Virus record (IMG/VR): IMGVR_UViG_3300000358_000075
Length of the DNA stretch: 26,005 nucleotides
Strand: one strand, 5' to 3'
DNA from: a virus
Lineage: Duplodnaviria; Heunggongvirae; Uroviricota; Caudoviricetes
Numbering within the stretch: position 1 is the first letter of the stretch; each line of letters begins with the position of its first letter. This document shows positions 15,429-16,181 of the stretch, one piece after another. The translations under genes were made by a program, and so were the position numbers. Below the pieces are notes generated by a model. It searched no databases and had not been told where the DNA came from. It saw only the letters and a program-made list of their open reading frames with translations.

Positions 15429-16181
15429 ATGAACCTTGAAGCCTTACCAAAATATTACTCCCCAAAATCTCCAAAATTGAGTGATGACGCACCGGCGACA
15501 GGCTCTGGTGGTTTAACGATTACGGATGTGATGGCTGCGCAGGGGATGGTGCAGTCGAAAGCACCGCTTGGGTTTGCCTTATTCCTGGCAAAAGTTGGTG
15601 TTCAGGATCCTCAGTTTGCGATTGAAGGTCTGCTCAATTACGCGATGGCACTGGATAACCCGACATTGAATAAATTGAGTGAAGAAACCCGGCTACAGAT
15701 TATTCCTTACCTTGTGAATTTTGCCTTTGCTGATTATTCCAGGTCTGCGGCAAGTAAGGCTCGTTGTGAGCATTGTGCTGGTACTGGATTTCATAATGTA
15801 TTGCGCGAAGTGGTGAAACACTCCAGAAGCGGGGAATCTGTTATCAAAGAATAGTGGGTGAAGGAACTATGTCAGCATTGCCATGGTAAGGGAGAAGTCA
15901 GCACAGCGTGCAGAGGGTGTAAGGGTAAAGGTATTGTCCTGGATGAAAAAAGGACCCGGCTTCATGGCACACCTGTTTATAAGATTTGTGGGCGTTGCAA
16001 TGGAAAACGGTTTAGTCGTTTACCAACCACACTGGCGCGGCATCATGTCCAGAAGCTGGTACCGGACCTGAGTGATTATCAGTGGTATAAAGGATATGCA
16101 AATGTCATTGATAAACTGGTTACAAAGTGCTGGCAGGAGGAATCTTACGCTGAAGCACAATTGAGAAAGGTGACGAGATAA
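15429..16181 (+). pseudogene. Late antiterminator Q homologue (QuuQ-like) interrupted by an in-frame TAG at 15852-15854
   Basis: Two track ORFs (15429..15854 and 15858..16181) are in the same frame, separated only by one amber codon; the downstream part carries the Cys-rich zinc-binding region (CQHCHGKGE…CRGCKGKG…CGRCNGK). Confidence 0.7.

Follow-up and report, generated by a model that had tools for sequence, protein, structure and literature searches.

The closest described counterpart of the gene considered here is the antitermination protein Q of phage lambda, whose structure has been determined (PDB 4MO1, 7UBJ-7UBN) and which gives the Pfam family PF03589, the Q-lambda family, its name (PMC9388147). 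In lambda Q, a four-helix, DNA-binding body is put together from two separate stretches of the chain (residues 61-113 and 153-207); the stretch between them (114-152) forms a zinc-ribbon arm, the N-terminal residues 1-44 form a torus, and body, arm and torus are all needed for function (PMC9388147). On the DNA, a -10-like sigma-dependent pause element is found at the start of the transcript from the lambda late promoter PR' (PMC9388147). Within this family, a 250-aa type is represented by QuuQ/YdfT of the Qin prophage of E. coli K-12 and by proteins annotated as Q in the records of SfV, mEp460, Stx2c-converting phages and Ayreon, to which the intact version of the gene studied here is 97-98% identical; its presence as Q in these records implies that the intact protein is the late regulator of sequenced temperate phages. 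QuuQ/YdfT and the phage Q genes of this type also share with our locus the downstream arrangement of cspF, cspB, essQ, rrrQ and rzpQ. A search of the literature on QuuQ/ydfT found no experimental paper on the protein itself, and one on natural premature stops in antiterminator Q genes found nothing directly relevant. Nonsense mutations in Q give a late-gene-defective phenotype, as exemplified by the classical amber mutants of lambda Q, and point inactivation of an essential lytic regulator, with the cargo genes persisting, is the usual first step of prophage decay. Finally, AntQ of the Salmonella prophage Gifsy-1 offers a further parallel as a Q-like antiterminator of a resident prophage (PMC4825925).

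The window, i.e., the whole 26,005-nucleotide stretch of DNA that we analyzed, is a lambdoid prophage beginning directly after yjjG. A near-identical prophage in E. coli JNE25-003 shows the following order: integrase; an early region with genes for a Rha-family regulator, a Dam methylase, RusA, KilA-N and DUF968; Q; cspF and cspB; essQ, rrrQ and rzpQ; cspI and gnsB; and then terminase and portal. Outside the contig ends, the window differs from this relative by merely three substitutions in about 23.5 kb (at 1730, 15852 and 20857), of which those at 1730 and 20857 are intergenic by the JNE25-003 annotation, leaving 15852, in the Q gene, as the only visible coding difference. With the coordinates transferred from JNE25-003 (offset 2864), the lysis cassette spans 18085-20014 on the plus strand and comprises the essQ holin (18085-18300), a ydfR-like gene (18305-18649), the rrrQ lysozyme (18993-19526) and rzpQ (19523-20014), each identical to its counterpart. 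The morphogenesis genes start with the small subunit of the terminase (22779-23324, plus strand), followed by the large subunit, whose gene is interrupted by assembly gaps. The moron genes cspF, cspB, cspI and gnsB likewise have the same sequence as in the Q-intact relative, consistent with the earlier proposal that the prophage retains its morons.

Four runs of N (7224-7299, 11546-11628, 23667-23676 and 24356-24365) mark the window as a scaffolded draft. Comparison with the JNE25-003 prophage indicates that the first two gaps, of 76 and 83 N, represent only 9 and 14 bases. At the third, 23538-23666 resembles 23677-23805 with 5 mismatches, and at the fourth, 24101-24355 resembles 24367-24621, both duplications lying inside the gene for the terminase large subunit. 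These look like contig ends of two related prophages that have been joined, and hence the integrity of the large-subunit gene cannot be judged. The Q gene sits midway in a clean 12-kb contig (11629-23666).

In this contig, the Q gene is split by an in-frame amber codon, TAG, at 15852-15854. The upstream ORF (15429-15854, plus strand) starts with ATG, codes for 141 aa and terminates at this TAG, while the downstream ORF (15858-16181, plus strand) starts with GTG and codes for 107 aa, a single TGG separating the TAG from the GTG. Since both start coordinates are divisible by 3, the two are in the same frame. When joined, they are colinear with the 250-aa antitermination protein WP_001047103.1, for which RefSeq uses the name ydfT, and a base-by-base comparison with the intact ydfT of E. 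coli 2014C-3061 yields matches at 752 of the 753 positions, the sole mismatch being a T for G at 15852 that turns GAG (Glu142) into TAG. The Q gene of the JNE25-003 prophage shows the same lone difference. Colinearity together with a single-base difference from an intact gene points to an interrupted gene as opposed to two chance ORFs, and the ORF pair is thus one disrupted Q gene at 15429-16181, as the preliminary description had held in reading the two as a single QuuQ-like antiterminator. We consider this to be, quite probably, a real and recent loss-of-function G-to-T nonsense mutation that leaves the prophage blocked in late gene expression; the recency follows from the mere three substitutions that separate the window from its Q-intact relative.

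Both halves of the gene are recognizable as parts of an antiterminator in their own right. In profile searches against PF03589 ('Antitermination protein Q', cut-off 26.7 bits), the N-terminal fragment scores 76 bits (E 2.6e-21), the C-terminal fragment 108 bits (E 2.2e-31) and the joined 250-aa protein 179 bits. We considered whether the two profile matches might reflect a tandem duplication and rejected this, as lambda Q itself also gives two profile stretches and phmmer returns one colinear match with an insertion. To elaborate, in the phmmer comparison with PDB sequences (7ubm_Q, E 1.1e-37) residues 1-120 correspond to lambda Q 1-125 and residues 160-250 to positions 117-207 of the same protein. 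An AlphaFold (AF2) model of an intact orthologue with 96% identity (mean pLDDT 68) was compared to the PDB using Foldseek, and the top 8 matches were all lambda Q, the best being 7ubn_Q (E 1e-11). By sequence and modeled fold, the intact protein is hence assigned to the lambda Q family, with a predicted torus segment, four-helix body and zinc-ribbon arm. With its full-length frame interrupted at codon 142, the copy in the window counts as a disrupted member of PF03589, i.e., a pseudogene-like allele.

The principal departure of this type from lambda Q, with which it shares homology over the whole length and a matching fold, is a zinc-ribbon arm enlarged by an insertion of about 40 aa, which makes the protein roughly 43 residues longer and raises the number of CXXCXGXG motifs, as seen in the DnaJ zinc domain, from two to four. 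In the joined protein these start at C113, C148, C161 and C187 (window 15765-16010, residues 113-194). The joined protein scores 35.1 bits against the DnaJ CXXCXGXG model PF00684, above its cut-off of 32.7, and is thereby predicted to bind zinc; the C-terminal fragment alone falls below the cut-off with 28.1 bits. The arm of lambda Q contacts DNA and sigma region 4, and the four-motif insertion may therefore alter promoter recognition. This four-motif arm is a minor structural variation on lambda Q for which we found no direct study. In some orthologues, 269 aa in length (from Enterobacter, Kosakonia and Citrobacter koseri), a further extension of 17 aa is seen at the site of the arm insertion.

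The amber codon, which further sets the window copy apart from lambda Q, lies inside this insertion, between CXXCXGXG motifs 1 and 2, and in the AF2 model codon 142 maps to strand two (137-147) of a long beta-hairpin whose first strand spans 121-131. The 5' part of the gene (15429-15851, plus strand; codons 1-141), corresponding to lambda Q 1-125, thus begins with the N-terminal torus segment and continues through the first half of the four-helix body and CXXCXGXG knuckle 1 (C113, C116) into the start of the subfamily-specific insertion. After the TAG in place of GAG (15852-15854), the 3' remainder (15855-16181, plus strand; codons 143-250 and TAA, with the ORF listed from the GTG at 15858) contains motifs 2-4 and the region matching lambda Q 117-207, which supplies the remaining part of the zinc ribbon, the body's second half (lambda Q residues 153-207) and the C-terminal helix. 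The zinc-binding domain had earlier been placed downstream of the stop; this is correct for motifs 2-4, but motif 1 (C113-G120) is upstream and the stop splits the module.

Immediately past the Q gene, alignment to lambda PR' reveals a PR'-like late promoter (16213-16241, plus strand), with a -35 element TTGCAT (16213-16218) and a -10 element TAAAAT (16236-16241) separated by a spacer of 17 nt, 11 of which are shared with the spacer of lambda PR'. A consensus promoter scan did not call this promoter, as its -35 element matches the consensus at only 3 of 6 positions; the support for it comes from the lambda alignment. It is followed by AACGATGGG (16248-16256, plus strand), identical to the -10-like sigma-dependent pause element of lambda PR', which would place the transcription start at about 16248. 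Some 40-65 nt past this putative start is a tR'-like intrinsic terminator (16287-16316, plus strand), with a 10-bp stem formed by AAAACCCGCT and AGCGGGTTTT, a 4-nt loop and a T-rich sequence thereafter; the 73-nt leader is predicted to fold with an MFE of -26.2 kcal/mol (z -4.85). Promoter, pause element and terminator are all identical to those of the Q-intact JNE25-003 prophage. The gene is thus located where Q genes of this family are expected, directly upstream of the late promoter, the pause element and the terminator and ahead of the lysis genes, just as in lambda, and the earlier suggestion that it immediately precedes the PR'-like promoter and terminator on which it would act is upheld by the lambda alignment, the identical AACGATGGG and the hairpin with its T-tract. 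Separately, the hairpin at 16287-16310 can also be read as a minus-strand terminator (tail CTACTTTTTC), which is the strand listed by the scan; read in this way, it would stop transcripts coming from cspF and from a small ORF at 16460-16549.

Against this backdrop, we surveyed intact and split versions of the gene. A megablast search with the 753 nt found the Q gene, with the annotation 'ydfT: antitermination protein', in 2,465 of 5,426 complete E. coli genomes, with up to 4 copies of the same Q type per genome; among the matches listed, 27 records were 99.9% identical and none was 100% identical. The TAG-bearing 63-mers, of the window type as well as of a second allele type described below, were found in none of the 5,426 complete genomes, as against 2,100 genomes with the intact window-type stretch and 1,071 with the intact second type. 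Likewise, a TAG-bearing 44-mer allowing for both allele variants had no exact match in the genome contigs of GTDB species representatives. A homologue search over 5.8 billion protein clusters recovered many homologues with full coverage and lengths of 250-269 aa from E. coli, Salmonella, Citrobacter, Atlantibacter, Enterobacter, Kluyvera and others, every listed one of which is a single polypeptide. In an alignment of 24 orthologues (62-96% identity, all single polypeptides of 250-269 aa) Glu142 is invariant, as are the eight cysteines C113, C116, C148, C151, C161, C164, C187 and C190, which constitute four CXXC pairs in place of the two of lambda Q. Programmed recoding or a naturally split gene would be expected to leave a stop or a split conserved among orthologues, and none was seen. 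The comparison with intact orthologues that had been recommended thus finds a sense codon at position 142, and the possibility that the orthologues are naturally two genes at this point has no instance among the 24 orthologues or the 2,100 genomes.

These observations bear on whether the split gene might still work, through reassembly of two fragments following reinitiation at the GTG at 15858, read-through of the amber, or a suppressor tRNA of the host. The geometry of the lesion lends this some appeal: the split falls in the subfamily-specific arm insertion, in a predicted beta-hairpin outside the helical body, the GTG is only 3 nt past the TAG, and the same TAG occurs on two allele backgrounds. 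Moreover, on the second of these a good Shine-Dalgarno match (-7.5 kcal/mol) precedes the GTG, and a 107-aa ORF is called there. However, when the 20 nt upstream of the GTG were paired with the anti-Shine-Dalgarno sequence in the window allele, no such match was found, the score of -2.5 kcal/mol being weaker than that of 74% of the internal positions scored. Segments on either side of the split contribute to the lambda Q body (PMC9388147), so that each fragment from the window would lack essential parts, and neither should fold or act alone. The invariance of Glu142, with no split among the 24 diverse orthologues or the 2,100 complete genomes, is compounded by the rarity of split forms, the 107-aa product of the second allele being encoded on 12 contigs as against at least 1,000 for the intact protein. 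The base directly after the TAG is a T, a context usually linked to efficient termination, which also counts against residual function. The window carries no tRNA gene, and a prophage-borne suppressor tRNA is thereby ruled out for the window. Taken together, we regard continued function of the split gene as very unlikely.

The exact 141-aa product is present in a public protein collection, and the contigs encoding it fall into three groups. The first is a contig of the Logan assembly of run ERR3986632, which matches the window at 100% identity over 5.7 kb, TAG included, and bridges the second N gap of the window; this run may be the read set of the window itself, in which case its independence comes from the assembler only. 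The second group comprises contigs from GCA_005396045.1, SRR18271175 and SRR11948987, which carry a second Q allele, differing from the window at 23 of 753 positions (97% identity), with the same GAG-to-TAG change. This allele resides in a different prophage, its homology to the window being restricted to 15325-16262, and has intact parents matching at 752 of 753 positions in two complete genomes; its downstream 107-aa ORF is predicted by gene callers. In GCA_005396045.1, the allele with TAG at codon 142 occupies 4001-4753 of BGGT01000092.1, and the prophage of this type is lambdoid, with a truncated DUF968 gene, a Phage_holin_3_1 holin, an HNH gene and Terminase_4. The third group consists of six contigs that end at codon 141/142 with GA(G). 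We considered whether they mark a hot spot or a mosaic junction and rejected this as a selection artefact: an exact look-up of the 141-aa product returns only contigs cut at this point, and the recurrence is therefore not evidence of a hot spot. The same clusters also contain partial or truncated products of many other lengths. Short-patch gene conversion is similarly an unlikely source of the shared TAG, as the latter is flanked by differences between the alleles 4 nt upstream and 29 nt downstream; further, each TAG allele has its own intact parent (752/753), making independent mutation the simpler account. Hence, the GAG-to-TAG change at codon 142 exists in nature and probably arose twice.

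The same material allows us to weigh the possibility that the strain has an intact Q gene and that the T at 15852 arose from faulty base calling or consensus building in a draft assembly of low quality. Concern on this count is prompted by the four N runs with their wrong gap sizes and the sequence duplicated across gaps, by the lack of the TAG in all 5,426 complete E. coli genomes, and by its being the only coding difference from the JNE25-003 prophage. Nevertheless, the separate assembly of ERR3986632 has T at this position too, in a contig with 100% identity elsewhere, and the rest of the 12-kb contig, its repeat-affected end aside, has just one other substitution, indicating that the consensus is not generally noisy. 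Neither could a chimeric consensus of two normal Q copies produce the base, as no known normal allele has a T here; and the identical change is present in other data sets on another allele. The sequencing error that the preliminary description had held out as one of its alternatives is thus rendered less likely by the ERR3986632 assembly, and though a scaffolded draft leaves room for it, we judge it unlikely.

The occurrence of the same nonsense change in two different prophages also raises the prospect that the truncation is adaptive, either by disarming a lethal prophage or a toxic antiterminator with the cargo kept, or through a dominant-negative action of the 141-aa fragment. Expression of AntQ from Gifsy-1 is toxic to both Salmonella and E. 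coli (PMC4825925), and the N-terminal fragment retains the N terminus that contacts RNA polymerase (PMC9388147). Furthermore, one of only three substitutions relative to the nearest relative is a nonsense change, compared with the 103 of 2,250 possible single-base changes in the Q gene (4.6%) that yield a stop. However, one in three substitutions is not statistically meaningful, and the recurrence was recovered through the exact 141-aa look-up, which sees only same-site truncations and is silent on selection. The many other truncation lengths in the same clusters and the rarity of the allele (0 of 5,426 complete E. coli genomes) also speak against it, and we view an adaptive truncation as quite improbable. 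A more specific version is conceivable, wherein amber 142 is a recurrent selected change and its 141-aa or two-piece product, having kept the exit-channel segment but lost DNA binding, acts as a dominant-negative on Q-dependent late transcription. Were this true, the fragment would inhibit co-resident or superinfecting phages of the same Q type, thereby protecting the host while grounding its own prophage; we consider this exceedingly improbable.

Thus, we return to a recent loss-of-function mutation as the favored explanation, i.e., to the first of the three alternatives offered in the preliminary description, a prophage defective for late gene expression, which is the best supported of them. 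Briefly, we propose the following course of events, drawing primarily on homology to lambda Q. A single, recent G-to-T transversion has turned the invariant Glu142 codon into an amber, with translation ending after residue 141. The product would keep the N-terminal segment that forms the RNA-exit-channel torus in lambda Q, half of the body and one zinc knuckle, and would lack the body's second half, all but the first of the four CXXC knuckles, and the C-terminal helix. Such a product would probably neither bind the Q-binding element nor load on RNA polymerase paused at PR'. Without Q, transcripts from PR' would be expected to stop some 60 nt downstream, at the terminator, leaving the holin, lysozyme, Rz and terminase/morphogenesis genes without lytic-level expression, and induction would be abortive or very inefficient. 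In contrast, cspF, cspB, cspI and gnsB, which we assume to have their own promoters, would be unaffected. The mutation, the homology and conservation of the gene, the intact cis elements and the occurrence of the allele in the ERR3986632 assembly are observed directly; the loss of antitermination and the resulting phenotype of the prophage are predictions from homology. A Q of the same type from a co-resident prophage could possibly complement the defect in trans, given that up to 4 copies of this type are found per genome.

Several implications follow for how such loci are treated. Annotations should treat the two ORFs as one gene, flagged as a disrupted Q. The prediction is that an intact-looking lambdoid prophage at yjjG cannot finish its lytic cycle unless another prophage supplies a compatible Q, which bears on induction, on lysis-dependent phenotypes and on automatic calls of prophage intactness. 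The gene family, the 250-aa subtype and the type of lesion are all known, and only the specific allele is undocumented. What sets it apart from QuuQ/YdfT and the Q proteins of SfV, mEp460 and the Stx2c-converting phages is that those copies are intact, whereas Glu142 is an amber in the window; unlike the classical lambda Q amber mutants, it is a natural allele in a wild-type draft genome and not a laboratory mutant; and unlike a decaying prophage, the one carrying it is, as far as visible, otherwise essentially identical to a Q-intact relative. The window is a clean case of prophage decay at its first step, with a single point mutation in an essential regulator and the cargo genes untouched.

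A few other features of the prophage deserve mention. In Gifsy-1, control of an antirepressor by IsrK extends to the Q-like AntQ (PMC4825925). The early region of the window, like Gifsy-1, also has isrK-like and C4-like RNA genes, with Rfam matches at the gathering level to isrK (9688-9764, plus strand, 61 bits) and to the C4 antisense RNA (9789-9876, plus strand, 81 bits); unlike in Gifsy-1, where isrK adjoins antQ, the isrK-like gene and Q are about 5.7 kb apart. Both matches fall inside an uninterrupted 382-aa ORF (9328-10476), annotated as a Rha-family regulator in the JNE25-003 prophage; it is odd for an open frame to span two RNA genes. Cold-shock paralogues are embedded between Q and the lysis genes and again after the latter, with cspF on the opposite strand (16604-16816). 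The prophage cold-shock genes cspB and cspI are each preceded by a full-length match to the cspA thermoregulator 5'UTR, at 16956-17395 (plus strand, 157 bits) and 20226-20641 (plus strand, 114 bits), respectively.
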